Notes: a model not told the origin generated them from the letters alone. A stretch of DNA of 64,000 nucleotides from an uncultured archaeon (GCA_964587725.1 CAZPLO010000002.1:55597-119596); one strand, 5' to 3'; shown: positions 2,733 to 38,014, numbered from the stretch's first letter. Numbers and translations: made by a program.

Positions 2733-3234
2733 CTTCCACGGCCTCTTCGGCGTGTTTCTTCACCAGCTCCTTGGCGTCGTTTATGCGGAAGTACTGGTTG
2801 AAATTGGGTGTCGTAATCAGTATCTTGGTGTGGCCCTCCGGCTTGCGTTCAATCAGCTGCAGCCCCTCAAGGCGTTTCACGTACTCGTACACGCGGTTGC
2901 CGCGGAGCTTCACCACATAAGACTGTTTGATAGGTTGCTCGTACGCTATCATGGCCAGCGTCTTCAGCATCGCCTTCGGCATGTCGGTTTCTGGAATCAA
3001 CTGGGTGACGGTGTCCTCGTACTCCGGCTTAACGCGCATGCCGTAGGATTTACCGGACTTGAACACTTCGACGCCGCCGTCCCGCTGCGAGTACTCGCGG
3101 ACCAGGCCTTCCGCAATCTCCTTCACGGCCTTCACGTCCAGGCTGCCGCACACCCGCGCCAGCTTCTCAGCGCTCATGTTCTCGGAGGCCACGAACAACG
3201 CGGCCTCCACCACGCCTCTGTCCGACATGTCCAT
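2722..3234 (-). CDS. scpB: Segregation and condensation protein B (SMC-ScpAB kite subunit)
   Basis: VEAALF, KTLAMIAYEQPI, VKLRG, TTPNFNQYF motifs; start moved to MDMSD (3234). Confidence 0.9.
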   Translation of the reverse strand: MDMSDRGVVEAALFVASENMSAEKLARVCGSLDVKAVKEIAEGLVREYSQRDGGVEVFKSGKSYGMRVKPEYEDTVTQLIPETDMPKAMLKTLAMIAYEQPIKQSYVVKLRGNRVYEYVKRLEGLQLIERKPEGHTKILITTPNFNQYFRINDAKELVKKHAEEAVEDEG

Positions 3235-6755: not shown

Positions 6756-8618
6756 ATGGAATGTGTGGACTGTTTCCCCTACTCCGCCGTCCGCAGCGGC
6801 CAGGAGGAGTTCATGCGCGACTGCAGCGAAGCATTCAAGAAAGCGGACGTGCTTGTCGCCCACGCACCCACCGGCATTGGGAAAACCGCCGCCGTTTTGT
6901 CCGCCGCAGTCGACCACGCCCTGAAAAACCAGAAGACCATATTCTTTCTGACCCCCAAACACACCCAGCACACCATCGTCGTAGACACCGTGAAGAGGAT
7001 GCGGAAACGCCACGGAGTGTCGGCGTCGGTGGTGGACATAATAGGGAAGCAGTGGATGTGCCCACACCGCGTCCGCGACCTGAGCTCCCGGGAGTTCAAC
7101 GAGTTCTGCCGCAGCCGGAAGAAGGACGAGACATGCGAGTACTACAACAACACCCGCAGGAACAAACTGTCCAGGAATGGGTTGGACGCCGCCGCCAAGA
7201 TACTCGCGGAGCCCCTCCACAACGAGGAAGCGTTGAAAATATGTTCTGAATCAGGCCTCTGCCCGTATGAGGTGCTGCTGGAGGCCGGGCGGAAAGCGGA
7301 CGTCATAGTATGCGACTACTTTCACGTCTTCAGCCCGTCGGTGCGTCGGGCGTTCCTCAGCAAACTCGACCGCAGCGTAGAAGACAGCGTCCTCATAGTC
7401 GACGAAGCGCATAACCTGCCGGACCGTATACGGTCGATTATGTCCAACACACTCAGCACGTACACGCTCGACCGGGCGTCGAAGGAGGCTAAGGCGTTGG
7501 ACATGCGGCAGCTCGCCGACGACTTCATAGAAACCGTGAAGGTGCTGAAGAAGCTCGCAAGGAGCGTGAAGCCGGGCGGGGAGCGGTTCGTGGACAAGAC
7601 GGAGTTCGCGGACGAACTGGAGGCTGCGTTGAAGATGCCGTACGACGACTTCCACGGGGGCGTGGAGGCGTTGGGGGAGGAGGTGCTGAAGCTGCCGAAC
7701 CGCTACCGCTCCCACGCCAAGACCGCCGCACGGTTCCTGGAGTCGTGGCGGGGCCTGGACCTCGGTTACGCCCGCATACTTCGGAAGGAGAGGAAGGGAT
7801 TGAAATTGTCTTACCGGTGCTTGGACCCTGGCGTATCGTGCAGCGAGGTCTTCAACGCCGTTTACTCGGCTGTGCTGATGAGCGGCACCCTGACTCCATT
7901 GAGCATGTACTCGGACACCCTGGGTCTGCCTGGGAACAGGACCATGGAGCGCGCATACCGGAGCCCGTTCCCCAGGGAAAACCGCCTCACACTGCTGGTG
8001 CCGGGGCTGACGACGAAGTACGCGCAGCGCGGCGACTTCATGTACGGGAAGTACGCGTCCACGATTTCATCCGTCCTGTCCCACATACCCGGGAACGCGG
8101 CTGTCTTCTACCCGTCGTACAGGCTGCTGGCTGAGATCGGCGCGAGGGTGAAGTCGTCGAAGGAGGTGGTTGCGGAGCGGCAGGACATGAAGAAGGCGGA
8201 CAGACGCCGCGTATTCAACCGGCTGGTGAACCTGCGCGGGGACGGCGGGGGGGTGTTGATGGGCGTGCAGGCCGGCGGCTTCAGCGAAGGGCTCGACTAC
8301 GCAGGCAACCTGTTGGATGCGGTCGTCATCGTGGGGCTGCCGTTGGAGCACCCCACCCTGGAGACGCAGGCGCTGATAGACTACTACGACTTCCGTTTCG
8401 AACGCGGCTGGGACTACGGCTACATCTACCCTGCCATGAACCGCGCCCTCCAGGCTGCCGGAAGGTGCATCCGCAGCGAAACAGACCGCGGAGCCATCAT
8501 ATTGTTGGATGAACGCTTCAAATGGGGTAATTATAGGAAATGCTTCCCCTCCGACTTCGATTTCATTGTCACGGAGAAGCCGGGGAAGTATCTGCAGCGT
8601 TTTTTTCAAATAGTTTAG
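6756..8618 (+). CDS. xpd: XPD/Rad3-family Fe-S DNA helicase
   Basis: APTGIGKT Walker A, four Cys of the Fe-S domain, CPYE, DEAH, SGTL, QAAGRCIR motif VI. Confidence 0.93.
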   Translation: MECVDCFPYSAVRSGQEEFMRDCSEAFKKADVLVAHAPTGIGKTAAVLSAAVDHALKNQKTIFFLTPKHTQHTIVVDTVKRMRKRHGVSASVVDIIGKQWMCPHRVRDLSSREFNEFCRSRKKDETCEYYNNTRRNKLSRNGLDAAAKILAEPLHNEEALKICSESGLCPYEVLLEAGRKADVIVCDYFHVFSPSVRRAFLSKLDRSVEDSVLIVDEAHNLPDRIRSIMSNTLSTYTLDRASKEAKALDMRQLADDFIETVKVLKKLARSVKPGGERFVDKTEFADELEAALKMPYDDFHGGVEALGEEVLKLPNRYRSHAKTAARFLESWRGLDLGYARILRKERKGLKLSYRCLDPGVSCSEVFNAVYSAVLMSGTLTPLSMYSDTLGLPGNRTMERAYRSPFPRENRLTLLVPGLTTKYAQRGDFMYGKYASTISSVLSHIPGNAAVFYPSYRLLAEIGARVKSSKEVVAERQDMKKADRRRVFNRLVNLRGDGGGVLMGVQAGGFSEGLDYAGNLLDAVVIVGLPLEHPTLETQALIDYYDFRFERGWDYGYIYPAMNRALQAAGRCIRSETDRGAIILLDERFKWGNYRKCFPSDFDFIVTEKPGKYLQRFFQIV

Positions 8619-8659
8619 AGTAAACTTTAAACTGTTTATACTTTCTTTTAAACTGTTTC
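8607..8659. repeat. Three AAACWGTTT-like palindromic boxes at exact 21-bp period (site A)
   Basis: aaatagttta 8608-8617, aaactgttta 8629-8638, aaactgtttc 8650-8659; matches site B at 37936-37988. Confidence 0.8.
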
Positions 8660-9529
8660 AATTTGTATGGCGCCTTTGTAGACTTCCTCGGCGGGGCCGA
8701 TGAGGTAGGCTTTTCTGATGTCGTCTTTTTTGCCTTCCAGTTCTACTTTCACGTCTCCTCCGCGGGCGTGGAACAGCAGCGGCCTTCCGATGTCTGCCCT
8801 CCCGTTCAATACTGCGGCGACGGCGGACGCGCAGATGCCTGTGCCGCAGGCGAGGGTCTCGTCTTCCACGCCGCGTTCGTAAGTCCTTATCTTGAACTCG
8901 TTCTCCCCCGCTTCTTCGATGAAGTGGACGTTGACGCCGTTGGGGAACAGCTGCGTGTAATAGCGTATCCGGGGGCCGATGGTCTTCAGGTCGAGGTTGT
9001 CTATGTCGCCGTTGAATATTATGGCGTGGGGGTTGCCCATGCCCACGGCGGTTATCTCGTATTCGAACCCGTGTATCATAACCTTCTCTCCGACGAATTT
9101 TTCATCCGGGTCTCCTGTGACCTGGGCTTCCCCGCGTTTCACCTGCGGGCGGTCCATGTCCACCTTCACCTCCAACACCGCGTCCTCCACCACTGTGAGT
9201 TCGAGCGTCTTCACGCCCGCCAGGGTTTCGGCGGTCATAGCCGGCGTGTCGACGAGCAGGTGGTCGTGGACGTATTTGGCGAGGCAGCGTATGCCGTTGC
9301 CGCACATTTCAGCGCGGCTGCCGTCGGGGTTGTAGAACACGAAGTTCACGTCCGCTTTACCGGATTTCTGGACGAATATGGCTCCGTCGGCGCCGACGCC
9401 GGTGTGGCGCCTGCACATTTTCTCCACGAAACTCGGTTTATCCGTGTCCGGGACTACCTTATTATCCCATTCCTCGACCACGATAAAGTCGTTGCCGCTT
9501 CCGTGCATCTTCGTGAACCTGACTTCCAT
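8648..9529 (-). CDS. dapF: Diaminopimelate epimerase
   Basis: FTKMHGSGNDF, EMCGNGIRC, MGNPH, ERGVEDETLACGTG. Confidence 0.96.
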   Translation of the reverse strand: MEVRFTKMHGSGNDFIVVEEWDNKVVPDTDKPSFVEKMCRRHTGVGADGAIFVQKSGKADVNFVFYNPDGSRAEMCGNGIRCLAKYVHDHLLVDTPAMTAETLAGVKTLELTVVEDAVLEVKVDMDRPQVKRGEAQVTGDPDEKFVGEKVMIHGFEYEITAVGMGNPHAIIFNGDIDNLDLKTIGPRIRYYTQLFPNGVNVHFIEEAGENEFKIRTYERGVEDETLACGTGICASAVAAVLNGRADIGRPLLFHARGGDVKVELEGKKDDIRKAYLIGPAEEVYKGAIQIETV

Positions 9530-23811: not shown

Positions 23812-24543
23812 ATGAGGGTTTTGTCGGATGGGGGCGCAGGGTATGTGTGGCGGAACACGCAGCTGGTGAAGAGCAGGGTACTATTGTTCCTCACGTTGCT
23901 GGTGTTGGCGTTCACCATGTTCCTACTTGACCAGGCCCCGTACTCCAGCGTCGGCCTCATCCTGGTGCCGCTGGCGTACGTGCTCGGCATATACTCGTAC
24001 AAAAGCTACCTCACATGGCGCGGCGGGTCCGTGGGGGAGGAAAGCGTAGCAGACGCCCTCAACGAGCTCGACGACTCCTACATACTGCTGAACGGACTCG
24101 TAGTCCCGCCGAACAGGGGGGACACCGACCACATAGTCGTAGGCCCCAACGGATTCTACGTGATGGAGTCTAAAAACTACGGCGGACGCATAAGCTGCGA
24201 CGGAGACCAGTGGAGTAAAGTGAAGGTGGGCCGCGGCGGCACAGTCTACACCCTCGAAATAGGCAGCCCCAGCAACCAGGTGAAACGGAACGCGAAAGTG
24301 TTGAAAGACTTCATACTGGAACATCAGGGTGAAATATTCGAGGATAAGGCGCCGCACCTGTGGGTTCACGGGCTGCTGGTGTTCACCAACCCCGACGCCG
24401 AAGTCGAACTACACAACCCCACCGTGGAGGTGGTGGAACTCGACCAGCTCGCCGAACACATACAGTCCACCGACTCCTGCTACACGCTAACGCCCGGTGA
24501 AGTCGACTCCGCCGGCAGGCTCCTCATGAAGCACTGCCGCTAG
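23812..24543 (+). CDS. Membrane-anchored NERD-domain nuclease-like protein
   Basis: Two TMs then GxxGE, DTDHIVVGPNG, ESKN, SPxxQ motifs of NERD (PD-(D/E)xK). Confidence 0.85.
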   Translation: MRVLSDGGAGYVWRNTQLVKSRVLLFLTLLVLAFTMFLLDQAPYSSVGLILVPLAYVLGIYSYKSYLTWRGGSVGEESVADALNELDDSYILLNGLVVPPNRGDTDHIVVGPNGFYVMESKNYGGRISCDGDQWSKVKVGRGGTVYTLEIGSPSNQVKRNAKVLKDFILEHQGEIFEDKAPHLWVHGLLVFTNPDAEVELHNPTVEVVELDQLAEHIQSTDSCYTLTPGEVDSAGRLLMKHCR

Positions 24544-25700
24544 AACACGATAATGCCGGAGAAGAATATGCCCAGCGCATACTTCAACGCCAGGAATATG
24601 GCCACCGAAGCCACTATGAACACCGGCGTATTCGGCACCCCCGACAAGACGTTGCCGGTTCGCAGCAGCCCCACCAGCAATGCGCCGAAGAACCCGGAGA
24701 TAACAAGTATCGCCACGGCGTACATCTGGAAGAACCCCGGGTCTATGCTCAGCGGCGACAACGCAATCATACCCTCCGGCGTCTCCTGAGCCAAGTCGGT
24801 GACGTTCAAGTTCTCCATCATCGTCGAGAAAATGGTTATGAACTGCAGCGACACCGCGAACAGCAGCGGCGCACCCACCATGATGGCGAAGATTATGAAG
24901 ATTGCGTGGGCGTTTGTTTCAGCAGCCATCTGCTTCTTCAGATTATGCTCGCGGCGCATGTCCGTGGCAATACCCTGGAGGACGTTCGGCAGGTCGCCGC
25001 CCGACTTCATCCCCTGGATGATAAGGCGGACGCTCCGGGACAGCTTCGTCGAACGCACGTGATTGGTCATACCCACCAACGCGTCCGTCAACGGTATCCC
25101 CGTCAACGTCGCCTTGGCCACGTCCTGTATCTCCACCGCCAGCGGTCCGAACTCCGGGCGTGCCGCACTCCACAGCGCGTTATACGATGTCATCCCCGCC
25201 GTCATGTTCTGGGACACCATACTCAGGACGTCCGGGAGCACGTTCTCCACCGACTCGCTGCGGCCGTTGATAAGCAGGCTTAATATGATGAACGGCATCA
25301 TAAACACCCCCACGAAACCAACCAACACAGCCACCCACGCCATGTACTCCGGGAAACCAAGGACATTCGCCGCCAGGTAGGCGACCGCAGCAACCACTAT
25401 ACTGTACACGGCGGTGACGCTCATCACCTCCTCCGAGGTCATGTCCACGCCCGCGTATATGAGCTGCTGGTTCATCCGGTTGCTGGACTTCCGGGGCATG
25501 AACCCCGCCATCAGCTTCGGAATGTGCACCATCACCACCTTCACGGTCTTGCTCATAATCTTGAAGAAGATGATGAACACCAATATCACAACGTTAACGG
25601 CCCTCAACAGAATCTGCACCAGACCCACCACCAGCTGGGACATGGTGCTGGAGGCCTCCTTCACGCCCTTCGGAACCGCAGGTTTCTTGTCATCAGCCAT
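24540..25700 (-). CDS. TadC/FlaJ-like (T2SS-F) pilus platform protein
   Basis: LPDVL, RPEFGPL, KSGG, multi-TM; in operon with the ATPase. Confidence 0.88.
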   Translation of the reverse strand: MADDKKPAVPKGVKEASSTMSQLVVGLVQILLRAVNVVILVFIIFFKIMSKTVKVVMVHIPKLMAGFMPRKSSNRMNQQLIYAGVDMTSEEVMSVTAVYSIVVAAVAYLAANVLGFPEYMAWVAVLVGFVGVFMMPFIILSLLINGRSESVENVLPDVLSMVSQNMTAGMTSYNALWSAARPEFGPLAVEIQDVAKATLTGIPLTDALVGMTNHVRSTKLSRSVRLIIQGMKSGGDLPNVLQGIATDMRREHNLKKQMAAETNAHAIFIIFAIMVGAPLLFAVSLQFITIFSTMMENLNVTDLAQETPEGMIALSPLSIDPGFFQMYAVAILVISGFFGALLVGLLRTGNVLSGVPNTPVFIVASVAIFLALKYALGIFFSGIIVF

Positions 25701-25703
25701 CTC

Positions 25704-26570
25704 TTACACCGCAGGCCTCTTGCCTTTAACGTACATTATGAACACCAGCTGGAATATCACCAACCCCACCATGATAATCCAGAACACATCCTCCGTAATC
25801 ACGCCCTCGCCCAGGAAACTGGAGAGTATGACAAGCAGCGTGACCCCCATCGACGGTATTATGACGCCCAGCATCATGTAGACGAGGCCGTAGAGGTTCA
25901 ATTCCTTCCCATAGGCTTTTATCCGGTTCTCCTTCTCCATGCGGATGTCGCTGGATATCGCCTCCAACGCCTTCACCACGTCGCTGCCGGTCTTCAACGC
26001 GTTCACAATCTGCCACATAGTCTTCCTGAAATACTCCGACGGACTCCACATTCCCACGTCGTCCAACACCTCAGTCATCGACTTCCCCTGCTGCACCTCC
26101 TGGATGATGCCCTCGCAGATTAACGAGCATTCCCCGTACTCCCCGCGGGCTATGTTGACCAGGCTGTCGAACAACGGAACGCCGGAATTCAACTGAATCT
26201 GTATGTCCTTCAACATGTACTCAAGGTCCTGGTCTATCAGCGTAGCCCTCCTCCTCATCTTCACCTTCGGCAGATAGATGAGGTAGAGTAGGGCGACGGC
26301 GGATATGAACAGCGTGAATATTATGCTGCCGTAGCTGGCCTGCAAGCCGTCGGCGAGTACGAACGGCACCACAGCAACAAGCATCACCCCCGTGAAAACC
26401 ACAAGGGTCAGGTATAAAGCCACCGACAGGTACTGGACGGAGTCGATGGTGTATCCGCTGCGTTTCAAATCCCACTCCATCTGCGGGAACAGCGGCTCCA
26501 GGTGGCGGGAGAAATCCAGCAGAGGCTCAGCCATGTGCAGCATGGTCCGGGACTCTAGTGTGGAAGCCAT
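25704..26570 (-). CDS. TadB/TadC-like (T2SS-F) pilus platform protein
   Basis: SGVPLFD, YGECS, WQIVNALKTG, YGKELN, VIIPSMG. Confidence 0.88.
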   Translation of the reverse strand: MASTLESRTMLHMAEPLLDFSRHLEPLFPQMEWDLKRSGYTIDSVQYLSVALYLTLVVFTGVMLVAVVPFVLADGLQASYGSIIFTLFISAVALLYLIYLPKVKMRRRATLIDQDLEYMLKDIQIQLNSGVPLFDSLVNIARGEYGECSLICEGIIQEVQQGKSMTEVLDDVGMWSPSEYFRKTMWQIVNALKTGSDVVKALEAISSDIRMEKENRIKAYGKELNLYGLVYMMLGVIIPSMGVTLLVILSSFLGEGVITEDVFWIIMVGLVIFQLVFIMYVKGKRPAV

Positions 26571-26571
26571 C

Positions 26572-28386
26572 CTACTGTACCAACTTGTTAATGTCTACTT
26601 TACTCTTACTCTTGGCAAGGTCTATGATTTTACCGCGGTCCAGGTAGTATTCCGTCACCATCCTGCCCACGCTGTTAACGTCCTTTATGTCGAGGTCGAG
26701 CATCCACTCCAGCACCTGCCTCTTGCCCTGCAGGTCCTCATCCACCTCCTTCTCCGTCATCCCCGTGAACAGCGCCAGCTCGTCCTTCACCCTGATGCTC
26801 GGATACATCCTGTTTATGCTGTCGCTGCGGGGGTCCCACTTGTAGAGGGTGTTCAACGTGGGGGTGTCGGATTCGTCCTTGGTGAGCTCGCATATCTCGA
26901 ACGTCCGCCGCTGCCTGGTCCTGCGGTTCCTGTACTGTATCACAATCAAGTGCAGGGACTTCATCACCGTCGGGGGAATGTCCATGGGCGGACTGGTTAT
27001 CCTGTCCACCACCTCCTGCGCGCGTTCCGCGTGGAATGTGGAGTAGACGCTGTGGCCGGTGTGCATGGACTCGAACAACACCTCCGTCTCCCGCTTCGCC
27101 CGGACCTCCCCCACTATAATCCTGTCGGGCCGCATACGCAGAGAGTTCTGCAGCAGCTCCAGCATCCCTATCCCGCCTTCGCCGTCGGGGTTAGGGGGCC
27201 GGATGGTCATGGGAATCCACTGCAGGTACTCCGGCAGATTCAGCTCCCGAGTATCCTCCAGAGAGATTATCCTCTGGTTCGCGGGCATGAACGGCATAAT
27301 CGCGTTCAACACCGTCGTCTTACCCGAGGCGGTCCCGCCGCCCACGAGTATGCTCATCTCGTACTCCACACCCATCCACAGGAAAGCCGCCACCTCCGGC
27401 GTCAGCGTGGCCGTATCCGGGTCTATCAAATGGACTGCGCTCCACGGCAGCCTCGAAAACCTCCGTATGGTAAGGGTGTTCCCTGAAGTGGATATGGGGA
27501 ATAATGTGGCGTTAACCCTGTCCCCAGTAACAAGGTGGGCGTCCAGCAGCGGGTTCAAATGCGTTATCTCCCTGCCGACCTCACGGGCCACCCGCGACGC
27601 ATAGTTCTGTATCAAATCCTCCGTCGGCAGTATGATGTTGGTTTTAAGCCAGCCCCGCTCCTTGTGGTAAACCCACACCACGTCCTGGCTGTTGTTGACC
27701 ACCACCTCCTCCAACCGGTTGTCCATAAGCAGGTACTCTATGTCTCCGAGCCCCAGCATCTCATTCACCAGTAGCCTGCTCAACGTCGCAATATACTCTT
27801 CAGACGACTTCTTCAGCACGTTCCGGAGCTTTTCCTTGGCGCGGCTGATGAACTTCACCTTCATCTTCTGGAACTTCATGGTGTCGAACACGTCCCTGGT
27901 CTCAATCTGGATTTCACCTATCAGCGCCCGCTTGGTCTCGTCCAGCAGCGCCCTGGTCACGAAGTCGATGTGGGGCATAGACACCATGTAGTGGGGGACG
28001 TAGTCTCCGCTGTCCACTACCTTCACGCCGACGCTGAAGTCGTCGCTGGTGAGTGTGTAACCGTCTAATTCCTCCTCTCCCTTTTCAGACGGCCGGGCCT
28101 TGGGGGCCTCCGGCGTGTGCATTTCAACCGACTCTGTCTCCCGCTCCTGGAGCTCATTCTTCCGCTCCTTGTAGTCGAGGGACTCCAGGTCAGGCTCCTT
28201 CAGGTAGTGGGACTCCACCCGTATCAGCTTCCGCTGCATCAAATCCTCCGCCAACCGGGTGACCATGGTCTTGTCTATTTCGAGTTTGTCTGAGGCTTCG
28301 GACACGTTTATCCTGCCGGAGGAGTTTATCAAGTCCAGAAGCCGTTTCCTCTGCCCCGTAACTCCAGAATCAGCGTTCTCCTCCAT
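26572..28386 (-). CDS. Type IV pilus assembly ATPase (VirB11/TadA/FlaI family) with N-terminal wHTH
   Basis: GGTASGKT, EDTREL, LRMRPDRIIVGEVR, TGH..YSTFHA. Confidence 0.95.
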   Translation of the reverse strand: MEENADSGVTGQRKRLLDLINSSGRINVSEASDKLEIDKTMVTRLAEDLMQRKLIRVESHYLKEPDLESLDYKERKNELQERETESVEMHTPEAPKARPSEKGEEELDGYTLTSDDFSVGVKVVDSGDYVPHYMVSMPHIDFVTRALLDETKRALIGEIQIETRDVFDTMKFQKMKVKFISRAKEKLRNVLKKSSEEYIATLSRLLVNEMLGLGDIEYLLMDNRLEEVVVNNSQDVVWVYHKERGWLKTNIILPTEDLIQNYASRVAREVGREITHLNPLLDAHLVTGDRVNATLFPISTSGNTLTIRRFSRLPWSAVHLIDPDTATLTPEVAAFLWMGVEYEMSILVGGGTASGKTTVLNAIMPFMPANQRIISLEDTRELNLPEYLQWIPMTIRPPNPDGEGGIGMLELLQNSLRMRPDRIIVGEVRAKRETEVLFESMHTGHSVYSTFHAERAQEVVDRITSPPMDIPPTVMKSLHLIVIQYRNRRTRQRRTFEICELTKDESDTPTLNTLYKWDPRSDSINRMYPSIRVKDELALFTGMTEKEVDEDLQGKRQVLEWMLDLDIKDVNSVGRMVTEYYLDRGKIIDLAKSKSKVDINKLVQ

Positions 28387-28429
28387 TTTCCGGTCGCTTT
28401 AATTATGCTTTCCGCGCAATAAATACATC

Positions 28430-29746
28430 CTAGTCCACGACGTCCAAGTGGAAGTCGCCGTCGTGGTCTGCGCACACTACAGTGTATGTTCCCGTCTCGT
28501 TGAACAGCCACTTGAAGCTGCTGCCGGCGTGTAATGTTCTGTCGCCCTCCCATGCGTCACCTCCGAAGCCTATGGCCACCAGGTGGTGCTCCACTCCGGC
28601 CGCCTCAACCCATGTGACTGTGGTGTCGACGGGCACAGTCATCCTCGGCGGTATGAACAAGTCCGTTCCCCCGTCGTGGGTTACCGTGGCCAGACAGTTC
28701 AGCCCCCTCACACCGTATTCGGTCGCGTGTTCTATGTCCAGTCGGAACCCAGGGTGCCGGGTCATCCCCTCCACCGTGCACCTGCTGGAGACGTTGCTCC
28801 AGTACAGGTAGTCTACCTGGCTGAGGTTACCGTTCACGGACACGTTGTATTCGCTCAGCAGGTCCAGGTTAACCAGGCTCTCCAGGCTTATGTTTCCGGG
28901 CCGGTCGCCGACCATGAACAGCGTGTCCGCCGCCCGGTCAAGGAACTTGCTGCTCAGGTTCGCCCGCCCCTCCATACGGTCGAAGAACGACGGCGCATCG
29001 TACTCGGTCGTTGAGGGGAGGTAGCAGCCGCTGTCTATCCAGTCGTCCAGTACGCTGCCGTTCACCACACCCGTATCAGGGCATCTTTTGAAGCCGTGTA
29101 TGGCCGCCGGCACGCCTGTCGTCGTATAATGCATGGGGTCCTCCAGCGGCTCAATGGACACAATCGACGTTACAGGGAGTCCGCGGCCAATGTAGCGGTT
29201 GCCGCTTGACTCATCCAACACCGTCAAATCGATTTCGCTCACTATGGCGTAGTGCCAGGGCTCGTATAATGCGATGCTCATGTTCCTGAACTCCACCGTC
29301 ACATTGTATCCTACGGCATCCACTCTGTCCGTCCAGTCCAATACGGTGTTGTTTCTCATGTACTTTCTGATGTCTGTTGCCGGCTGGACCGTGTTCTCTA
29401 GGGTGCCGCACACCATCAGCTCAGCCAGCGCCGCCTCCACGCCGTCGACGTGGTATCTGAAGGAGGTGCAGTTCTCCATCACGTAACCGTCGAATGTTTC
29501 GTTGGTTAATATTACGTGGTTGACGGCGTACGCTGTCGCCCGCTGCCCGGAGATGGCGAACGCCCGCCCAGCGTCCTCCATCAGTGACTCAACGTAGTAG
29601 TGGAGTTCGTCCAAGTCCATGCGGTTAGACACGTCCGCGTAGGCGGGGGAGGATATGGCTGTGTAGAAGAACGCTAGGGACAGGGCAATCAGGATAAGCA
29701 TTGTGGTAACCAGGGTGAAAACGTATCCGCGGGAGCCTAAACCCAT
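28430..29746 (-). CDS. Large pilin-like/pilus-associated protein with C-terminal cupredoxin-like domain
   Basis: SRG|YVFTLV class III-like signal; C-terminal F.P....V..DTTVTW...H...GTYTVVCADH. Confidence 0.7.
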   Translation of the reverse strand: MGLGSRGYVFTLVTTMLILIALSLAFFYTAISSPAYADVSNRMDLDELHYYVESLMEDAGRAFAISGQRATAYAVNHVILTNETFDGYVMENCTSFRYHVDGVEAALAELMVCGTLENTVQPATDIRKYMRNNTVLDWTDRVDAVGYNVTVEFRNMSIALYEPWHYAIVSEIDLTVLDESSGNRYIGRGLPVTSIVSIEPLEDPMHYTTTGVPAAIHGFKRCPDTGVVNGSVLDDWIDSGCYLPSTTEYDAPSFFDRMEGRANLSSKFLDRAADTLFMVGDRPGNISLESLVNLDLLSEYNVSVNGNLSQVDYLYWSNVSSRCTVEGMTRHPGFRLDIEHATEYGVRGLNCLATVTHDGGTDLFIPPRMTVPVDTTVTWVEAAGVEHHLVAIGFGGDAWEGDRTLHAGSSFKWLFNETGTYTVVCADHDGDFHLDVVD

Positions 29747-30408
29747 ACTATCAACCTCATCTCCATCGGCCCCCACAGCGTCTGCACGCCTATCCTGCCT
29801 TCGGCGTCGAAGGTCATGTTGTCCCTGTACGGTATGTCCATGACGCCGTCGCCGTCCAAATCAAGCGTTTCGTTGAGGAGGCGGTAGACTGCGTCGTCGA
29901 CCGCGTCGTCCGTGTTCGGGTGACTGTGCGATTCGAAGGTGTACTGGTGCACCCCCCCGTCGCAGCTGTAGCCCTGGGGAATGGGTGTGTCGGGGGTGAA
30001 CAGGTCCGGTTCCCTCCCATACTGTATCCTCCAGCATCCGCCGTCGCTGAAGCGGTGGGGCTCCCCGTACGCGACCTCACTCACCAGGGTGGAGCGTGAG
30101 AACGTGACCTTCACGTCGTCCACGGAGAGGTTGCCCGCCGCCTCGGACTTCAATACCGTCGGGACAGTGCAGTTGCCTGATGCGGGGTCGTATATGCAGC
30201 CTATGCACCAGCACCCACCCCTTACGTAGCGGTTCACGCTGCCGGTGGCCTCTACGGTTTCCGGGCCTGCGAAGGTTGTCGAGGCAGCCCATTCGTAGTC
30301 TGTGTCGTTGCCGACGTCCAGGAATATTCCCGACTGGGCGTGTGCTGTGAGCAGTGCCGCGGCGGCCAGCAAACCCGCCAGCAGGTAGAAACCAGACCTC
30401 ATATCCAA
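29737..30408 (-). CDS. Secreted pilus-locus protein
   Basis: Hydrophobic N-terminus, Cys pairs, C-terminal LWGPMEMRLIVW; overlaps the next gene. Confidence 0.65.
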   Translation of the reverse strand: MDMRSGFYLLAGLLAAAALLTAHAQSGIFLDVGNDTDYEWAASTTFAGPETVEATGSVNRYVRGGCWCIGCIYDPASGNCTVPTVLKSEAAGNLSVDDVKVTFSRSTLVSEVAYGEPHRFSDGGCWRIQYGREPDLFTPDTPIPQGYSCDGGVHQYTFESHSHPNTDDAVDDAVYRLLNETLDLDGDGVMDIPYRDNMTFDAEGRIGVQTLWGPMEMRLIVWV

Positions 30409-31445: not shown

Positions 31446-33785
31446 CTACACCTCCTCCTTCTCCAGGGCGGCGAGTTCCTCGTCTATTTCGTCGCGGGGC
31501 ATCCGCGGCCGCCCAGTCGAAGGCTTCTTAAGCCTAACATAAGCTACCGCGGCCACGGCCACGGCAAAAGCCAGTATCACGTAGATTGTGTAGTCCTGTC
31601 CTTCGCCGCCTCCGCCGTTGACGGGTTTGCCGATGCTCTGGTTCGCCCTCCGCACCAAATCCAGGGCGGTGTCGGAGGCGTTGTGGTAGTCCGCGCGCTC
31701 GTATAGTTCGCCGGCGGTTTCCGCATAGGACATGGCCTTGGGGTAGTCTCCGGACTCGTAGGCGGTCAGCGCAATCCTGTAGTGGCGGTCCGCTATCCTG
31801 ATGACCAGTATGTCCGACCGCACGGTTCCGTTGTAGTCGTCTATCTCGGCATATATCTCCTTGGCCCGGTCTATCATCATCAGCGCCCCGGAGTAGTTGC
31901 CGAAGTTACTCAGCGTGACGGCTTTGGTGTAGTATCCGTCCGCCGTAAGTCGCTTCTGCATCCTCATCTCGTCCCTGATGCTGTCCTCGAGTTCGTCGCA
32001 GTTTTCCACACCCGTTCCGTCGCCTATCTTCTCGTATATTCTGCGGGCGTCGTCTATCTTCCGCAGGGCGGCCTCCAGGTTGTTCATGGCGTAGTAGCTT
32101 AGGGCCTGCGAATAGTGGCGGTCCGCCTCCTCCTTGTTCTTCACCCTGAACTCGTCGTCTATCCTGGCCCTGAGCAGGTTCACCCGGGGAAGGCTGTCAC
32201 GGTCTCCTATGTCGTTGTAAAGTTCCGCAGCCTTGTCGACGTATATGCTGGCGTTGGTGACGTCGCCGGAGACGAGGTTGTCATAGGCTATGTTGTAGAA
32301 GTTGTCTGCCCGGAATTTCTTGATATAGTACTCTGTGGCTTCGAACCGGGTGACGTTGGCCGTGGTGTAGCCTATGAAGTCCGTGAGTCCGTTACCGTCC
32401 ACGTCAGCCACCCTGAATCCGTAAAGCGACTTGCCCGCGAAGTAGCTCCACTTGAGGCTGCCGACGGCGTTGTATACGTACACGTTGCCGTCCCTGGAAG
32501 AGACTATCACGTCCTTGAAACCGTCTAACTCCACGTCCTCCATACGTATGTCTGTGATGGCGTCGTCGACCCTCTGTTTCCACCGGAGTCTGCCGTTGCT
32601 CTCATACGTCTCTATGACGCCGCCGCTGCTCCCCGCCGTGACCTCCATGGTGCCCTGGCCGTCAACGTTGGCGGCGTACACCCGCCGCACCTGGCCCCCA
32701 AGGTCCGACCCCCACCTAGCTCCCATGGCACTCACGTTTGATGCGTTAATGACGTAGAACATTCCGTTATTGGATGCTATGACGAGCTCCCTCAGGATGT
32801 TGCCGTCTATGTCGCCCGCGTATATGTCGCGGACGCTGTTGTCCACCCCCTCCACGATTTTGCCGTCGTCGTCCCTCTTCCACACTTCGTATGTGCCGGC
32901 CACGCCACCGGCCTGGTCCAGTACGACTACTGTGCCGTTCATATCCTTGTATTCGACGTAACGCCACCCCAACACATCACCCGTAGACCCCTCCTCGCAT
33001 ATTATCTTCGTGTAGGTGCGGTAGCAGATGTCTTCGGTCTGGTTTCCCTCAATTTCCTCCTCAGACCATCTGCAGCTGCAGTCCCTCAACCCGGCGCAGC
33101 ATTTGCTGGGGTCGAGGCAGTCTGCTTCCGTCGCCCACCCGGATTCCTCGTCCACGACGTCCTCGCTGTAGCAGACCTGCCCCTCAATGGGCTCGTCGGT
33201 TTTCTCGTTGTATACGTATATGACGTTGTCTCCAACTCCGGCGGCCACGTACCTTTTACCCTGCTGCCTGAGGAACGAAACGGATTTTACGCTGTCAGGG
33301 GTTATGTGCCTCCACACGGGGCTGCCGTCCGGATTCACCACGTAAACCCCCCCGTGGTACCTTATAACACGGTACAGGACCCTGTTCTTTGGCAACACGC
33401 CCATGCCCTCCTCGTCAACCTCGAAGTCCTGGGGCGTGTAGGTGCGAACCTCCTTGGCGCCGCCGAGCCCGAATATAAGCTCTTCGACGCCGTCCCCGTC
33501 CACGTCTCCGGCGTCCATGCAGTATATCCTACCTATCATGCTGTGGTTTCCGAGCGCGAACTCGTCCACCAGCCTCCCGAACCGGTCCAGGACCACCACG
33601 GTGTTGTTCTGCAGGCCCACGTACACCTCACTGTATCCGTCTCCGTCGGCGTCAGCCAAAACCATGTCCCCCACGGACACCCTGGCGCCGTACGACCACT
33701 TCACGTCCAGGTTCATCCGCGGAGAGGCGGCCGACGCATACGACGCCAGCAGCACCACAGCCAATATGGTTAAAACGTGTTTCAT
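31446..33785 (-). CDS. Type I membrane protein: FG-GAP beta-propeller + TPR-like helical repeats + C-terminal TM
   Basis: Signal peptide, DxDGDG repeats, repeated A..YY..A......G.Y..A......A..IY..IGD, TM near the C-terminus. Confidence 0.8.
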   Translation of the reverse strand: MKHVLTILAVVLLASYASAASPRMNLDVKWSYGARVSVGDMVLADADGDGYSEVYVGLQNNTVVVLDRFGRLVDEFALGNHSMIGRIYCMDAGDVDGDGVEELIFGLGGAKEVRTYTPQDFEVDEEGMGVLPKNRVLYRVIRYHGGVYVVNPDGSPVWRHITPDSVKSVSFLRQQGKRYVAAGVGDNVIYVYNEKTDEPIEGQVCYSEDVVDEESGWATEADCLDPSKCCAGLRDCSCRWSEEEIEGNQTEDICYRTYTKIICEEGSTGDVLGWRYVEYKDMNGTVVVLDQAGGVAGTYEVWKRDDDGKIVEGVDNSVRDIYAGDIDGNILRELVIASNNGMFYVINASNVSAMGARWGSDLGGQVRRVYAANVDGQGTMEVTAGSSGGVIETYESNGRLRWKQRVDDAITDIRMEDVELDGFKDVIVSSRDGNVYVYNAVGSLKWSYFAGKSLYGFRVADVDGNGLTDFIGYTTANVTRFEATEYYIKKFRADNFYNIAYDNLVSGDVTNASIYVDKAAELYNDIGDRDSLPRVNLLRARIDDEFRVKNKEEADRHYSQALSYYAMNNLEAALRKIDDARRIYEKIGDGTGVENCDELEDSIRDEMRMQKRLTADGYYTKAVTLSNFGNYSGALMMIDRAKEIYAEIDDYNGTVRSDILVIRIADRHYRIALTAYESGDYPKAMSYAETAGELYERADYHNASDTALDLVRRANQSIGKPVNGGGGEGQDYTIYVILAFAVAVAAVAYVRLKKPSTGRPRMPRDEIDEELAALEKEEV

Positions 33786-33789
33786 CTTC

Positions 33790-34734
33790 CTATCCCACCG
33801 GCGCCTTCACCTTATCCAATACTTTGGAGATTATGTCGTCCGGGGTGATGCCGAAGTCTCTCGAGTCCGGATTCAATATTATCCTGTGCCGGAGCACCGG
33901 GAACGCCAGGTTCTTAATGTCTTCGGCGTTGACGCTGTCCCTGCCCTTGAAGAACGCCCTCGCCTTAGCCGCCTTCGTGAAGTCCACCGTCGCCCGGGGG
34001 CTGCCGCCAGTCGCAACCTCCCTGCGGGTGCGGGTGCCCTCCACAATCTTTATCAGGTACTCCAGCATGCTGTCTGACATGGCTATGCTGTTCTCTATCT
34101 CCTCCCTTATGATAAGTATCTCCGGCGGATTGAATATCTTGCTTATTTTAATCTCCTCGGCCTTCGACTTCACAATCATCATCTCCTGTTCCAGCGTCAA
34201 ATACTGCATCACGGACTTGAACATGAAACGGTCCTTCTGGGCCTCCGGAAGCGGATAGGTGCCGAGCTGCTCCACAGGGTTCTGTGTCGCCAACACGGTG
34301 AACGGCTGCGGCAGCTTATGGGTCGTGCCGCCCAGCGTCACAGCCTGCTCCGCCATGGCCTCCAGCAGCGCCGACTGCGTCTTCGGCTGCGCACGGTTTA
34401 TCTCGTCCACCAGAAGCAGGTTGGTGAAGATGGGGCCCTTCTCCAAAACCTTCTCCTTCTTGGCTTCCTCGTATTTCACCTTCCCGAGGATGTCGGAGGC
34501 GGTGACGTCCGGAGTGCACTGAATACGCTTGAAAACCATGTCCATGGTTTCCGCGATGGTTTTCGTCAGCACGGTCTTTCCCATGCCCGGAACGCTCTCC
34601 AGCAGGATGTGTCCGCCGGCGAAGACAGCGATTAATATGTCCTCTATGACCTCATCGTTGCCTATGACGCGCTTGTGGACTTCGTCTCCCAGCTGCCGGA
34701 ACTGCTGGAACACGTCCTTGTCTCTCTCAACCAT
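33790..34734 (-). CDS. moxR: MoxR-family AAA+ ATPase
   Basis: ESVPGMGKT, RIQCTPD, DEINRA, ATQNPVEQLGTYPLPEAQKDRF, GGSPRA, VLRHRI. Confidence 0.95.
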   Translation of the reverse strand: MVERDKDVFQQFRQLGDEVHKRVIGNDEVIEDILIAVFAGGHILLESVPGMGKTVLTKTIAETMDMVFKRIQCTPDVTASDILGKVKYEEAKKEKVLEKGPIFTNLLLVDEINRAQPKTQSALLEAMAEQAVTLGGTTHKLPQPFTVLATQNPVEQLGTYPLPEAQKDRFMFKSVMQYLTLEQEMMIVKSKAEEIKISKIFNPPEILIIREEIENSIAMSDSMLEYLIKIVEGTRTRREVATGGSPRATVDFTKAAKARAFFKGRDSVNAEDIKNLAFPVLRHRIILNPDSRDFGITPDDIISKVLDKVKAPVG

Positions 34735-34757
34735 CGCTAATGTATTTACTTTACCTT

Positions 34758-37700
34758 TTAATTACCGGCCCCCGCCTTCACGTTAACGGGCTCGCTGCTC
34801 TTGAAATACCGTTTTCCGTCCGGGTCCCTGTAAAACAGCTCCACCAGCTTAGCCGGGTAACTGCCTTCCCGACTGGACTTGAACTTAACCTTCACCGTAC
34901 GTTCCCCGCCCGCCGGGAGGGACTTGATTTCCTCCGGAGCCTCGGATACTTCGAAATCGTCTGTGGTGTTGCCGAGGAACCGGACTCCGGTGACGTCCAC
35001 GCCGCCGTCGTTGACGACCAGCCCGTCAACCCCCACCTCACTACCCACTTTCACATCCAAAGTGTCGCCGAAATCCAGCGTCACAGACGGCGTGTCGCCG
35101 GCCGGAGCCTTCTCCTCCACGGCCCCTGTAGCTTCCCCACCCCTCGCCTGCTCATCCGGCTTCTCCTCGTCGGGCGCTCCGGTGTCCAGCATGGTCCGCG
35201 CCTCCGCAGCTCCGCCCTCCAAAACCTCCAGTTCGCGTCCGCTGAATCCACCGGACTTGACCGCCTCGTTCAAATACTTCAGCGCCTCCTCCAGTTTCTC
35301 AGAGCCTCCGGCATCCCCCTCCTTCAGCATTTTAGTTCCCTCGGCCTTCAGCCTGTAGCCGGCGGAGCGGTTGACGCGGTCGTCCATGCGGCTGCGGCGG
35401 TAATAGGGTATGGACTCCTGGTAGTGTTGGGCCGCTCCTGCGGGGTCCCCTATCGCATCCAGGGCCTGTCCGATAAACCAGTGGGCGTCTCCCAGGCGTT
35501 TCACGGTTGTCTCATCCTCCACTTCACGGCCGGCCCCGATGTAACGTGTGTAGCAGTCTATTGCCTTCCGGTAGTGTTTCTCCAGCTGCTCGTCGGTCCT
35601 GAACTTACCGTATGTTTCAGCCATCTGGCGGTAGCCGTCGCCGGCCTGGAACCAGTTGCCGTTCCGCTCCTGCGACTCACCGTATCTCCTGTAGGATTCG
35701 ACGGCCTTCATGTAGTTTTTGAAGTCGGCCGCCGGCCGTTCAATGACCTCCACGCTGACTTCGCTGCTGGCTTTGACGTATTTGTGGCCTTTCTGGTCCT
35801 CGTAGTAGACTTCAATAGGCTTTATCCTGTATTCCCCCGTCCTGCTGGCCGTCAACTCCACCGAAGCCTTCCTTTCGCCGCCGGGCTCCAGCTCCGGCAC
35901 ATCGTCCGGCAGCTTCAGCAACTCCATCTCCTCGGGCAGATGCTCCAGAAACGTTATCCCCTTCATGGTGTAGCTTCCGTTGTTGCTGAGCTTCAAATTC
36001 AGCACTACGGGGACGCCGGAGAATGTTACCGTACGCTGGTCCATATCCAATGTGACGTCCGGCTTCAGTTTTATCTTGTTCACCATCGCCCTGCCTTCGT
36101 CGACGTTCTCCCCCAGTATCCTAACATACTCTCTCTTCCAGTCGCCGCCCTCGATTGCCTCGTTGAAAAGTTTCTCCGACTCCGACACCAGCTTCTCAGC
36201 CGCGTTGTAGTCGCCGCGGTCCAGGGCCTTCACAGCCTCCACGCTCACCCGGAAAGCGGATGTCACCTTCACCCTCCCCTCCTCTCCGGCTTCCCCGTAT
36301 ATCCCCTCTGCCTTGGAGAAGTGCTGCAACGCGTTGTTAAAGTCCCCCAGGGTCTTGTAGCACTCACCTATTTTGCGGTGGGCGTCGCCTAACAGGACTT
36401 TGTTGTCTCCGGCTGCGGCGTACTTGCTGAAATACGACACCGCCTTGTCCAGCCGGTTCTTCATCATGGGGTGGTCGTGCAGTCGCCGGTAGCAGTTGCC
36501 GGCCTCCATGTAGGCGAGTCCGGCCCCGTACAGGTCTTTCTCCTCCTCTTTGGCGGCGGCGTGCCGGTCATACAGTTCGGCGGCCCGCCCGTAGTCTCCG
36601 TGGTCGACGTATGATTCAGCGGCGTCCCACAGCATCCCCCCCTCCACGTAGGCTTCCGCAGCCTCTCTGAAGGCCTCTTCGGAGCCTTCATTATCCCCTG
36701 CCTTATCCAGCAGCTCAGCCCGCCTCCTGTAGGTTTCAGCCGACTTCTCATGCAACCCTATTTCACCGTAGGCTTCAGCCGCCTTCCCCATCAAATCCGC
36801 CGCATCCCCTCCTCCAGACTTTTCAGCCGCCTTCACGTAAGCGTCCGCCGCCTTCATATAAGCGTCCCGGGTCACCCCATCGTTTTTGGCTAGTTCGCTG
36901 GCCTTAGCAGCATCCACGTACCTGTCGCCGGCGGTTTTCAAATCGCCTTTCAACGCATATGCTGCCGCGGCTTGGGAGTAGGACGCCGCCGCCTGCGCCA
37001 CAGAGTCTATGCCGTAGTATGTCTCCGCGGACTTCAGGTAGTATCCTATGGCGTTGTCCACCTCCCCGCCGTTCTGGTAGACTCCCCCGACCTCCCGGTA
37101 GCTGGCTGCGGCTTTGGCTTGGTTGTCGTTCGCAGCTCGTAGGTCGGCGGCTTTGAGGTGATAGTATATCGCGTTTTTCTGGTCGTCCAGTTCATAGTAT
37201 GCCTCGGCCATCCTCTCGTAGGTGTCAGCGACTTCAAGATATTGTCTGTTGAGGGTGTCTATCTCCACCGCCCCCGCGTAGCCGTCTATGGCATCCTTCC
37301 ACCTCCCAGCCCGCTCATAGTTTTGGGCGGCCTTCTTGAAGCTGAGGCCGGCGCTGGCCTTGTCCTTTATCTTCAGGTCCACGACCGCAGACTTCTCGTA
37401 CATCTGGGCTGCGCTGCCGTGTTCTCCGTCTTTCTCATAGTATTCTGCGGCAGCATGGTATGCGTAGCTGGCGTTGAAGAAGTCGCCGACGTCCTCGAAC
37501 ATTATCCCCGACTTTTCATAGAATTCTCCCGCCCGTTTGAAGTTGTCGAGTTCCTCGAACGTTTTAGCGCCTTTCTCATATACCTCCCCCGCCTTCTCGT
37601 GGTCGCCCAGCACCCTGTAGCGGTCGGCGCATCGGATATAGTATTCGCCGGCCTTCTCATGGTCTTTGACTCTGTCTTCATGGCTTTCGTGGTCGAGTTT

Positions 37701-37880
37701 CTCGTAGCAGTCGCCGACCTTCTCCTCGTAGAAGGCCACCTCCCGTTCGTCGCCCCCCTTAAGCGCGGTCTTCAGCAGCTCCTCGTATTTCTTCAATGCT
37801 GCACGGAAGTGCTTTCCCTTGAAGCTGCTTTCGGCTTGATGATGCAGCAGCTCCCGCCTGGCCTGCTGGAGGAGGTCCAT
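34758..37880 (-). CDS. Cytoplasmic SNAP/TPR-like alpha-solenoid protein with two Ig-like domains
   Basis: Dozens of ~20-aa A...Y..AA..Y repeats; two aligned beta-sandwich domains (PxVTLD...N.G...PGGER...Y.D..G..Y); no signal peptide or TM. Confidence 0.8.
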   Translation of the reverse strand: MDLLQQARRELLHHQAESSFKGKHFRAALKKYEELLKTALKGGDEREVAFYEEKVGDCYEKLDHESHEDRVKDHEKAGEYYIRCADRYRVLGDHEKAGEVYEKGAKTFEELDNFKRAGEFYEKSGIMFEDVGDFFNASYAYHAAAEYYEKDGEHGSAAQMYEKSAVVDLKIKDKASAGLSFKKAAQNYERAGRWKDAIDGYAGAVEIDTLNRQYLEVADTYERMAEAYYELDDQKNAIYYHLKAADLRAANDNQAKAAASYREVGGVYQNGGEVDNAIGYYLKSAETYYGIDSVAQAAASYSQAAAAYALKGDLKTAGDRYVDAAKASELAKNDGVTRDAYMKAADAYVKAAEKSGGGDAADLMGKAAEAYGEIGLHEKSAETYRRRAELLDKAGDNEGSEEAFREAAEAYVEGGMLWDAAESYVDHGDYGRAAELYDRHAAAKEEEKDLYGAGLAYMEAGNCYRRLHDHPMMKNRLDKAVSYFSKYAAAGDNKVLLGDAHRKIGECYKTLGDFNNALQHFSKAEGIYGEAGEEGRVKVTSAFRVSVEAVKALDRGDYNAAEKLVSESEKLFNEAIEGGDWKREYVRILGENVDEGRAMVNKIKLKPDVTLDMDQRTVTFSGVPVVLNLKLSNNGSYTMKGITFLEHLPEEMELLKLPDDVPELEPGGERKASVELTASRTGEYRIKPIEVYYEDQKGHKYVKASSEVSVEVIERPAADFKNYMKAVESYRRYGESQERNGNWFQAGDGYRQMAETYGKFRTDEQLEKHYRKAIDCYTRYIGAGREVEDETTVKRLGDAHWFIGQALDAIGDPAGAAQHYQESIPYYRRSRMDDRVNRSAGYRLKAEGTKMLKEGDAGGSEKLEEALKYLNEAVKSGGFSGRELEVLEGGAAEARTMLDTGAPDEEKPDEQARGGEATGAVEEKAPAGDTPSVTLDFGDTLDVKVGSEVGVDGLVVNDGGVDVTGVRFLGNTTDDFEVSEAPEEIKSLPAGGERTVKVKFKSSREGSYPAKLVELFYRDPDGKRYFKSSEPVNVKAGAGN

Positions 37881-37935: not shown

Positions 37936-37988
37936 TAAACTATTTAAAATTTCTTTTAAACAGTTTATACTTTATTCCAAACAGTTTA
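37936..37988. repeat. Three AAACWGTTT-like palindromic boxes at exact 21-bp period (site B)
   Basis: aaactattta 37937-37946, aaacagttta 37958-37967, aaacagttta 37979-37988. Confidence 0.8.
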
Positions 37989-38014
37989 ATACCTGCCTCA
38001 TCAAATATTCCATC

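Follow-up and report, generated by a model that had tools for sequence, protein, structure and literature searches.

The DNA analysed here is a stretch of 64,000 nucleotides from an uncultured archaeon (hereafter the window; positions are counted from its first letter), in which the gap between two convergent genes is entirely occupied by a palindromic element. An XPD/Rad3-type helicase gene (xpd) runs from 6756 to 8618 on the plus strand and ends with the stop codon TAG at 8616-8618, and a diaminopimelate epimerase gene (dapF) runs from 8648 to 9529 on the minus strand, with its stop codon at 8648-8650. The element between them, site A (8596-8670, no strand assigned; detector span C2:64192-64266), comprises three phased boxes with 12-bp spacers, located at 8608-8616 (AAATAGTTT, one mismatch compared with AAACWGTTT), 8629-8637 and 8650-8658 (both AAACTGTTT). 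The xpd stop codon shares the last base of the first box, the dapF stop codon shares the first base of the third one, and the final three codons of dapF lie within this third box. The distance from stop to stop is 29 bp, all of which is taken up by site A, and the element extends into both genes. A preliminary description of this DNA had placed the boxes between the 3' ends of xpd and dapF, in an AT-rich patch of a GC-rich genome. Both points agree with our data: the flanking genes were recovered in this arrangement, and the A+T content was 76% at site A and 82% at a second copy (site B), in a genome with 56.8% G+C. The gene for ScpB (SMC segregation protein B; 2758-3213, minus strand), which had been put at about 5 kb from the boxes, was found 5.4 kb away from site A. 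Because such arrays recur approximately every 27 kb (see below), this proximity is most simply a coincidence, and the position of the ScpB gene is probably unrelated to site A.

Site B (37937-37987, no strand assigned) also contains three phased boxes, 37937-37945 (AAACTATTT), 37958-37966 and 37979-37987 (both AAACAGTTT), in the divergent intergenic region between a TPR/SNAP-repeat protein gene (34758-37880, minus strand, its 5' end 57 bp from the site) and the arginyl-tRNA synthetase gene argS (38015-39694, plus strand), which lies downstream of the site. At both sites all neighbouring AAAYWRTTT boxes were exactly 21 bp apart, as had been reported, and the match of 18 out of 21 positions between the units at 8628-8648 and 37957-37977 proved correct on re-reading the sequence. 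In the window, exact AAACWGTTT was present four times (0.30 expected; none of 100 shuffles reached this number), and a two-box pattern with up to two mismatches was matched four times (0.00 expected). The suggestion that the element is unlikely to be a promoter operator could be retained for site A only. Directly after the last box of site B there is a TTTAATA (37984-37990) located 31 bp upstream of the argS start codon (ATG), where a TATA box usually lies in this genome. Thus, site B lies in the promoter region of argS, and its last box together with TTTAATA probably doubles as the argS promoter.

To place the two sites in context, we examined the assembly that contains the window (1.56 Mb in 48 contigs, 56.8% G+C, 92% complete). 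Besides XPD, the organism encodes a family-B polymerase, Hjc, a histone and Orc1/Cdc6, which mark it as an archaeon, and mcrA was not found in the genome. Genome-wide, 42 exact AAACWGTTT boxes were detected, with seven distances of 21 bp and three of 42 bp between them. With the more general form AAAYWRTTT (142 copies), there were 34 pairs at 21 bp and 13 pairs at 42 bp, and any other distance between 9 and 70 bp occurred at most four times. A phase-controlled detector, which requires two 21-bp units in phase on one strand, identified 44 arrays, compared with 0, 2, 2 and 0 at control phases of 17, 19, 23 and 25 bp, respectively, and a looser matrix scan returned 53 strong clusters. In total, 44-51 arrays were distributed over 26 contigs and were present on every large contig. 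The consensus of 27 oriented units was AAACWGTTTAAACTTTTCTTT, in which TTTAAA hexamers alternate at distances of 9 and 12 bp. The outer A3 and T3 of the box were invariant in all 27 units, and the centre was a degenerate W. Such a combination of invariant outer triplets and a degenerate centre is the pattern of a dimer that makes no contact with the centre.

The different copies had only the consensus in common, and no flanking identity, terminal repeats or target duplications were observed among them. Six of the 96 contig ends and one scaffold gap fell within arrays, and the number of units varied from array to array; the breaks inside arrays suggest heterogeneity in copy number. We also considered a hairpin element. 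No compensatory pattern could be observed in neighbouring boxes: 17 of 44 pairs had complementary centres, a number also reached by 932 of 1000 shuffles (expectation, 21.8). The favourable RNA folds follow from the palindromes themselves, and the hairpin element was rejected. No Rfam family was found in the window.

The location of arrays relative to genes was analysed by using our own gene calls (1492 genes, 88% coding). Of the 44 phase-controlled arrays, 16 were at convergent, 18 at tandem and 4 at divergent junctions, 3 were at contig ends and 3 were inside doubtful ORF calls. When normalized to the number of junctions, arrays occurred at 6.1% of convergent (16/262), 2.0% of tandem (18/920) and 1.5% of divergent junctions (4/262), and the enrichment at convergent junctions was significant against both divergent (Fisher's exact test, P = 0.010) and tandem junctions (P = 0.001). 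For the 50 gene 3' ends that face an array, the median gap was -3 bp and 37 were within 20 bp; stop codons frequently form part of a box, and a tRNA-Ser gene is followed by an array after 15 bp. Synteny breakpoints were examined as a further trait of arrays (5 of 15 array junctions broken versus 52 of 503 others, P = 0.017), which was dismissed as such an excess is expected at any transcription-unit boundary.

The TATA-like appearance of TTTAAA raises the question of whether the arrays might be stacked core promoters, in which this hexamer and an upstream element drive flanking or antisense transcripts. TTTAAA is indeed among the hexamers enriched around -30, several tandem gaps have an array as their only intergenic DNA, and the end of site B is well placed for argS as described above. 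However, the box word was the top non-trivial 8-mer in convergent gaps, whereas divergent gaps, which contain promoters only, were dominated by other TATA variants (TTTTTATA, TTTAAAAA and TTTATATA). Moreover, the A+T content of the genome peaks 26-30 bp upstream of starts, where TTTAAAC showed no positional peak. Both the different words in divergent gaps and the lack of such a peak indicate that the box is not a generic promoter. In addition, the 16 arrays located between convergent genes have nothing there to promote, and the promoter explanation appears highly improbable for the family as a whole.

The same positional bias is what would be expected if the arrays were transcription terminators or 3'-end insulators, often bidirectional, whose T-tracts and AU-rich inverted repeats stop RNA polymerase after the stop codon. 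The excess at convergent over divergent junctions, the short distance to most facing 3' ends and the array behind the tRNA-Ser gene all fit this explanation. T-runs point in the same direction: four or more T were present at 75% and five or more at 42% of 40 array-associated 3' ends, compared with 36% and 22% of 411 other 3' ends with a spacer of at least 40 bp. At site A, the plus-strand RNA could form a hairpin of 13 bp with a U-rich tract behind it (-11.4 kcal/mol, z = -2.45). However, the dapF-sense RNA of the same site is unstructured (z = +0.46) and contains no T-run longer than three, the sense strand of the arrays is equally A- and T-rich (0.38 each), and only ∼3% of gene ends carry an array. 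A terminator also needs neither a palindromic box nor an exact 21-bp phase, and neighbouring boxes show none of the compensatory change already looked for in the hairpin analysis; 4 of the 44 arrays are in divergent promoter regions, and the even spacing described below would be left unexplained. Thus, many arrays are likely to terminate or insulate transcription, but this does not explain palindrome, phase and spacing, and termination or insulation is unlikely to be what the arrays are primarily.

The 51 strong arrays define 25 within-contig gaps with a median of 26.7 kb, a coefficient of variation (CV) of 0.32 and only one gap below 10 kb. Given this median, the distance of 29.3 kb that separates sites A and B is a typical gap. 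When the same number of intergenic junctions was chosen at random, the CV was 1.00 and 44% of gaps were below 10 kb, and none of 2000 permutations was as regular. The result was similar with other thresholds for array calling (CV 0.22-0.41), with the phase-controlled set of 44 arrays (CV 0.42; 1 of 24 gaps below 10 kb versus 41% expected) and with a seven-base box definition (CV 0.49). It should be noted that the gaps were determined in an assembly of 48 contigs and in two thirds of one further genome, and that the regularity had been noticed before it was tested; for this reason, the test was repeated in a second genome, that of a sister species (see below). The even spacing of the array family is a new finding and is far from random in both species. 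In the main texts covered by our literature search, no description of such evenly spaced arrays was found.

Intervals of this size recall the replicon spacing of eukaryotes, and the arrays might be related to replication, as easily melted unwinding elements at which replication either pauses or initiates in dormant or secondary zones. Besides the spacing of ∼27 kb, the A+T content of 76-82% over 50-75 bp in a genome with 57% G+C and the preference for convergent gaps would suit such roles, and one array is located 41 bp before orc1/cdc6. At this locus the array stands beside three direct repeats of about 80-97 bp that were found nowhere else, and the locus is probably oriC. However, it is only there that long direct repeats of the origin type occur. 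In the sister genome, G001, GC skew was one-directional over 537 kb and 511 kb, stretches with 15 and 20 arrays, which speaks against a large number of origins, and in both genomes the GC-skew step at arrays was equal to that at random positions. The arrays showed no orientation polarity along contigs, and no large-scale strand switch was observed at them beyond local gene convergence. A role in replication is thus very unlikely. The preliminary description had offered an iteron, a parS or SMC-loading-like site, a terminus or a nucleoid-organising site for a dimeric protein. The dispersed, palindromic and strictly 21-bp-phased nature of the element stands, but iteron, parS and terminus do not agree with arrays on all large contigs, with neither polarity nor change in skew; the nucleoid-organising option is the one favoured by the even spacing of ∼27 kb. 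A parS/ParB-type centromere was rejected on the same distribution, as 44-51 arrays at such intervals on 26 contigs are not a few sites near the origin.

We then searched for the arrays in 41 genomes of the order. The exact two-box pattern was found in one of them, namely the genome of the window. With two mismatches allowed, there were 34 matches in this genome and 4 in G001, which belongs to the same genus, and the remaining genomes were at the control level. A sequence model built from 14 arrays (R1) gave 65 matches here and 22 in G001; of the other genomes, four had a single match each and 35 had none. When one genome for each GTDB species was scanned, only single chance matches in AT-rich bacteria were returned. 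Thus, among the 41 relatives searched, the array family is confined to this genus.

In G001, of which 1.19 of 1.81 Mb were analysed, the seven-base core AAYWRTT formed 30 pairs at 21 bp and at most four pairs at any other distance. The unit consensus aAATTATTTnnAnTTTTtTtT has the same architecture as that of the window's genome, with mostly TWA in the centre. There were 42 arrays, compared with 1-5 at control phases, and the median gap was 20.6 kb. Only 8% of the 39 gaps were below 10 kb (31% expected), and none of 1000 permutations gave so few, although G001 was less regular overall (CV 0.71 versus 0.96, P = 0.019; across tests, CV 0.71-0.76 and P = 0.02 to 0.11). The two species share 724 reciprocal best hits with a median protein identity of 67%. 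At 386 strictly syntenic junctions, arrays were present at five in the window's genome and at six in G001, with two in common, where ∼0.08 would be expected (Fisher's exact test, P = 0.002). At three more syntenic junctions, array-like AT stretches could be seen by eye. Conservation does not extend to site A: 5 of the 10 relatives examined have kept the xpd-dapF junction, as has one metagenome contig, but none of them has a box array there. When metagenomes were searched for more closely related dapF junctions, only two distant contigs were obtained, one of which has a G+C-rich gap without array. With many further copies in the genome and the family also present in a sister species, the outcomes that had been named as refuting the preliminary proposal did not occur. 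The element is a member of a genome-wide family that is distinct from a generic promoter motif and is conserved in the sister species.

Such a narrow distribution is also compatible with selfish or slippage-generated extragenic repeats, similar to REP/BIME elements or decayed MITEs, which would persist behind genes where they are least harmful. REP and BIME elements of bacteria are short dispersed palindromes that occur in small clusters behind or between convergent genes, typically with a 3' and convergent bias, and are lineage-specific; they have been proposed as gyrase or IHF sites and as transcript-end elements. The arrays resemble them in their short dispersed palindromic units, clustering, 3' and convergent location and lineage restriction (with R1 giving no or one match in each of the other 39 genomes), and the variable unit number, the contig ends and scaffold gap in arrays and the array-free xpd-dapF junctions are further points in favour of selfish repeats. 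On the other hand, REPs are G+C-rich stem-loops that number in the hundreds and are associated with RAYT transposases, whereas the arrays are AT-rich, exactly phased at 21 bp, evenly spaced and devoid of hairpin covariation. No Y1/RAYT transposase (PF01797) matched in the 92%-complete genome, while the control genomes were detected. REP elements occur in archaea as well, according to the part of the literature consulted (PMC12306157). Further points against selfish repeats are that copies lack shared flanks, terminal repeats and target duplications, that the unit architecture and some positions have been kept at the protein divergence given above, and that a deficit of short gaps is unexpected for neutral repeats unless target immunity acts. 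On balance, we consider a selfish origin decidedly unlikely. If the arrays were nevertheless terminators or selfish repeats, their even spacing would still have to be explained, for instance by target immunity or by selection against copies close to each other.

A close structural parallel is with operators of archaeal Lrp/AsnC (FFRP) proteins. In the parts of two reports considered here, targets of archaeal Lrp-type proteins have a palindromic sequence of 13 bp (abcdeWWWe'd'c'b'a') whose inner arms are AAA/TTT, and TTAAAWWWTTTAA is the predicted optimum for one such protein (PMC2715240, PMC2995911). Targets may be clustered on one face of the DNA at a centre-to-centre distance of two or three helical turns (PMC2995911), and the dimers interact with one another and bend or wrap the operator DNA (PMC2715240, PMC2995911). 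The arrays share the arms T-N-A-A-A / T-T-T-N-A and, with their pairs at 21 and 42 bp, the spacing by whole helical turns. The centre agrees less well. An A/T-only centre is typical of the Lrp class, and C-W-G centres were rarely selected in vitro by Lrp-type proteins, as tabulated in this literature; the sister species has mostly TWA, but the window's genome has CWG in 28 of 88 boxes (besides 27 TAG/CTA and 16 TWA). In addition, Lrp targets are mostly promoters of regulated genes, the Lrp gene's own among them, whereas the arrays are mostly behind genes (16 of 44 convergent, only 4 divergent), and Lrp systems control a metabolic regulon, which differs from about fifty evenly spaced sites. The 29 proteins whose genes have 5' ends facing arrays showed no common functional theme.

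Several candidate binders were considered. The genome has two genes of the Lrp family. One of them, on contig 9, is preceded in both species by a single unit-like element before its start, which is specific to the genus. Orthologues of this gene were found in 40 of 41 relatives, and the recognition helix AEGTVYN was identical in 24 of 26 aligned orthologues (Ser replaces the first Ala in the remaining two), including those of genera without arrays. With a recognition helix that is nearly invariant across genera with and without arrays, the specificity of this protein does not track the box. Thus, its role as the specific binder is unsupported, the helix being nearly invariant across the order and the promoter element restricted to the genus. 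Since the recognition residues are the same in relatives lacking arrays, the resemblance described above also does not establish that the arrays belong to the Lrp operator class. A small winged-helix gene beside an array on contig 16 was dropped as a candidate, as it has a paralogue in this genome and lacks a clear orthologue in the sister species. The genome additionally contains genes for ScpB, histone-fold and TrmB-like proteins.

Taken as a whole, the anatomy of the unit, its phasing and dispersal, the 3'-end bias, the even spacing and the retention of both the unit and some array positions by the sister species lead us to a reading in which the arrays would be phased sites for a dimeric architectural protein, resembling the operator clusters of archaeal Lrp proteins, that organises the chromosome. 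We give this reading a probability of roughly 45%; protein binding, the nature of the protein and the function of the complexes are inferred from those features. Each array would be a row of two to four predicted sites for a dimeric DNA-binding protein, with one dimer per palindromic box (arms T-N-A-A-A and a three-base centre YWR). About fifty such complexes might form in the gaps behind gene ends, evenly distributed at intervals of ∼27 kb, and could act as architectural points, that is, as boundaries of domains or loops, sites of SMC stalling or topological barriers. Insulation or termination of transcription would then likely be a side effect of the complexes.

To our knowledge, known chromosome-organising sites in prokaryotes are either few and clustered (parS), limited to one macrodomain (matS) or defined by binding data only (Smc/TrmBL2 peaks). 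In yeast, cohesin-associated regions and ARS elements are AT-rich, lie preferentially between convergent genes and recur at intervals of roughly 10-40 kb. The arrays are similar to these eukaryotic sites in AT-richness, convergent gaps and interval, although GC skew argues against many origins. The nearest functional analogue is the TrmBL2/Smc-ScpAB sites of Thermococcus kodakarensis, which are likewise tens of AT-rich sites in an archaeal genome of moderately high G+C content. In this species, 90 Smc peaks were reported, 66 of them with TrmBL2, at AT-rich and A-tract-rich sites; convergent genes flank the main boundary, and SMC is positioned by an architectural protein (PMC11840125). The sections of that report consulted here describe only broad AT-rich motifs at these peaks, with no mention of phased palindromes or even spacing (PMC11840125), whereas the arrays are known from sequence alone.

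A more far-reaching form of the chromosome-organising reading, which we regard as possible but doubtful, is that the genus encodes a regular scaffold in which arrays at ∼27 kb would nucleate wrapped complexes that anchor loops or stall SMC and so delimit units of similar size, a prokaryotic boundary system similar to CTCF. The box would co-evolve with its binder in such a system, as may be suggested by the different AT-rich palindrome carried by a neighbouring genus. As it stands, about fifty sharply defined and helically phased sites are marked by sequence alone, and if a protein does bind them, they would offer a direct test of sequence-encoded partitioning of archaeal chromosomes. A three-box array provides a compact 63-bp probe for fishing the factor. 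Finally, the AT-rich palindrome observed in the neighbouring genus is TTATATWATATAA.

The arrays of the window's own genome (AT-rich rows of palindromic AAAYWRTTT boxes spaced 21 bp apart) seem to have broken its assembly. Six of the 96 contig ends, namely the starts of C1, C4, C17 and C32 and the ends of C12 and C34, were no more than 150 bp away from a strong array, compared with approximately 0.5 expected. C34 and C32 overlapped each other within an array, the former with its end and the latter with its start, and a run of N marking a scaffold gap (C17:22519-22609) was flanked on either side by array sequence. Variation of the number of 21-bp units in the population is perhaps the cause of these breaks.

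An array was also found immediately upstream of the orc1/cdc6 gene on C11, outside the window. Upstream of the same gene, three direct repeats of approximately 80-97 bp (at 156, 1645 and 2226) were present, two of which were separated by a small HicAB-like gene pair, and the rest of the genome contained no further copies of these repeats. The region C11:156-2410 is probably oriC. In addition, the two species of the genus shared a unit-like element, composed of nine box-like bases, a T-rich spacer and AATTAAA, in the promoter of a highly conserved Lrp/AsnC gene (C9:21609-21653 in G000, the window's genome, and C3:379039-379085 in its sister species, G001); other genera lacked this element.

The box of G000 was absent from the relatives in the neighbouring genus g2 (G002 and G012), in which another AT-rich palindrome, TTATATWATATAA, was enriched. 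Exact copies numbered 9 in G002 and 17 in G012, and allowing up to one mismatch yielded 30 in G002 versus 9 in the control. Some pairs were separated by approximately 20 bp. Moreover, the dapF-xpd gap of G012 contained an AT-rich element at the same junction as site A, the array at window 8596-8670. The palindrome TTATATWATATAA may belong to a comparable system that uses another box. At site A itself, the XPD helicase gene ended with TAG, and an in-frame TAA followed three codons downstream, within the array (window 8607-8630).

With regard to gene calling, the ScpB gene (window 2758-3213, minus strand) was overlooked by the simple caller and occupied the gap between its calls at 2732 and 3261. 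The number of genes is thus slightly underestimated, and uncalled genes are possible in some of the long gaps beside arrays. A long gene-free stretch outside the window, at approximately 37-47 kb of C5, in which 8-mers were repeated approximately 40 times, looks like a CRISPR array and was left out of the array statistics. The window also encoded a NERD nuclease, an Hjc resolvase and a secretion/pilus-type cluster with one T2SSE ATPase and two T2SSF proteins, adjoined by a MoxR-type AAA ATPase together with giant FG-GAP/beta-propeller and TPR/SNAP-repeat proteins (cluster and adjoining genes, 24543-30408 and 31449-37880).
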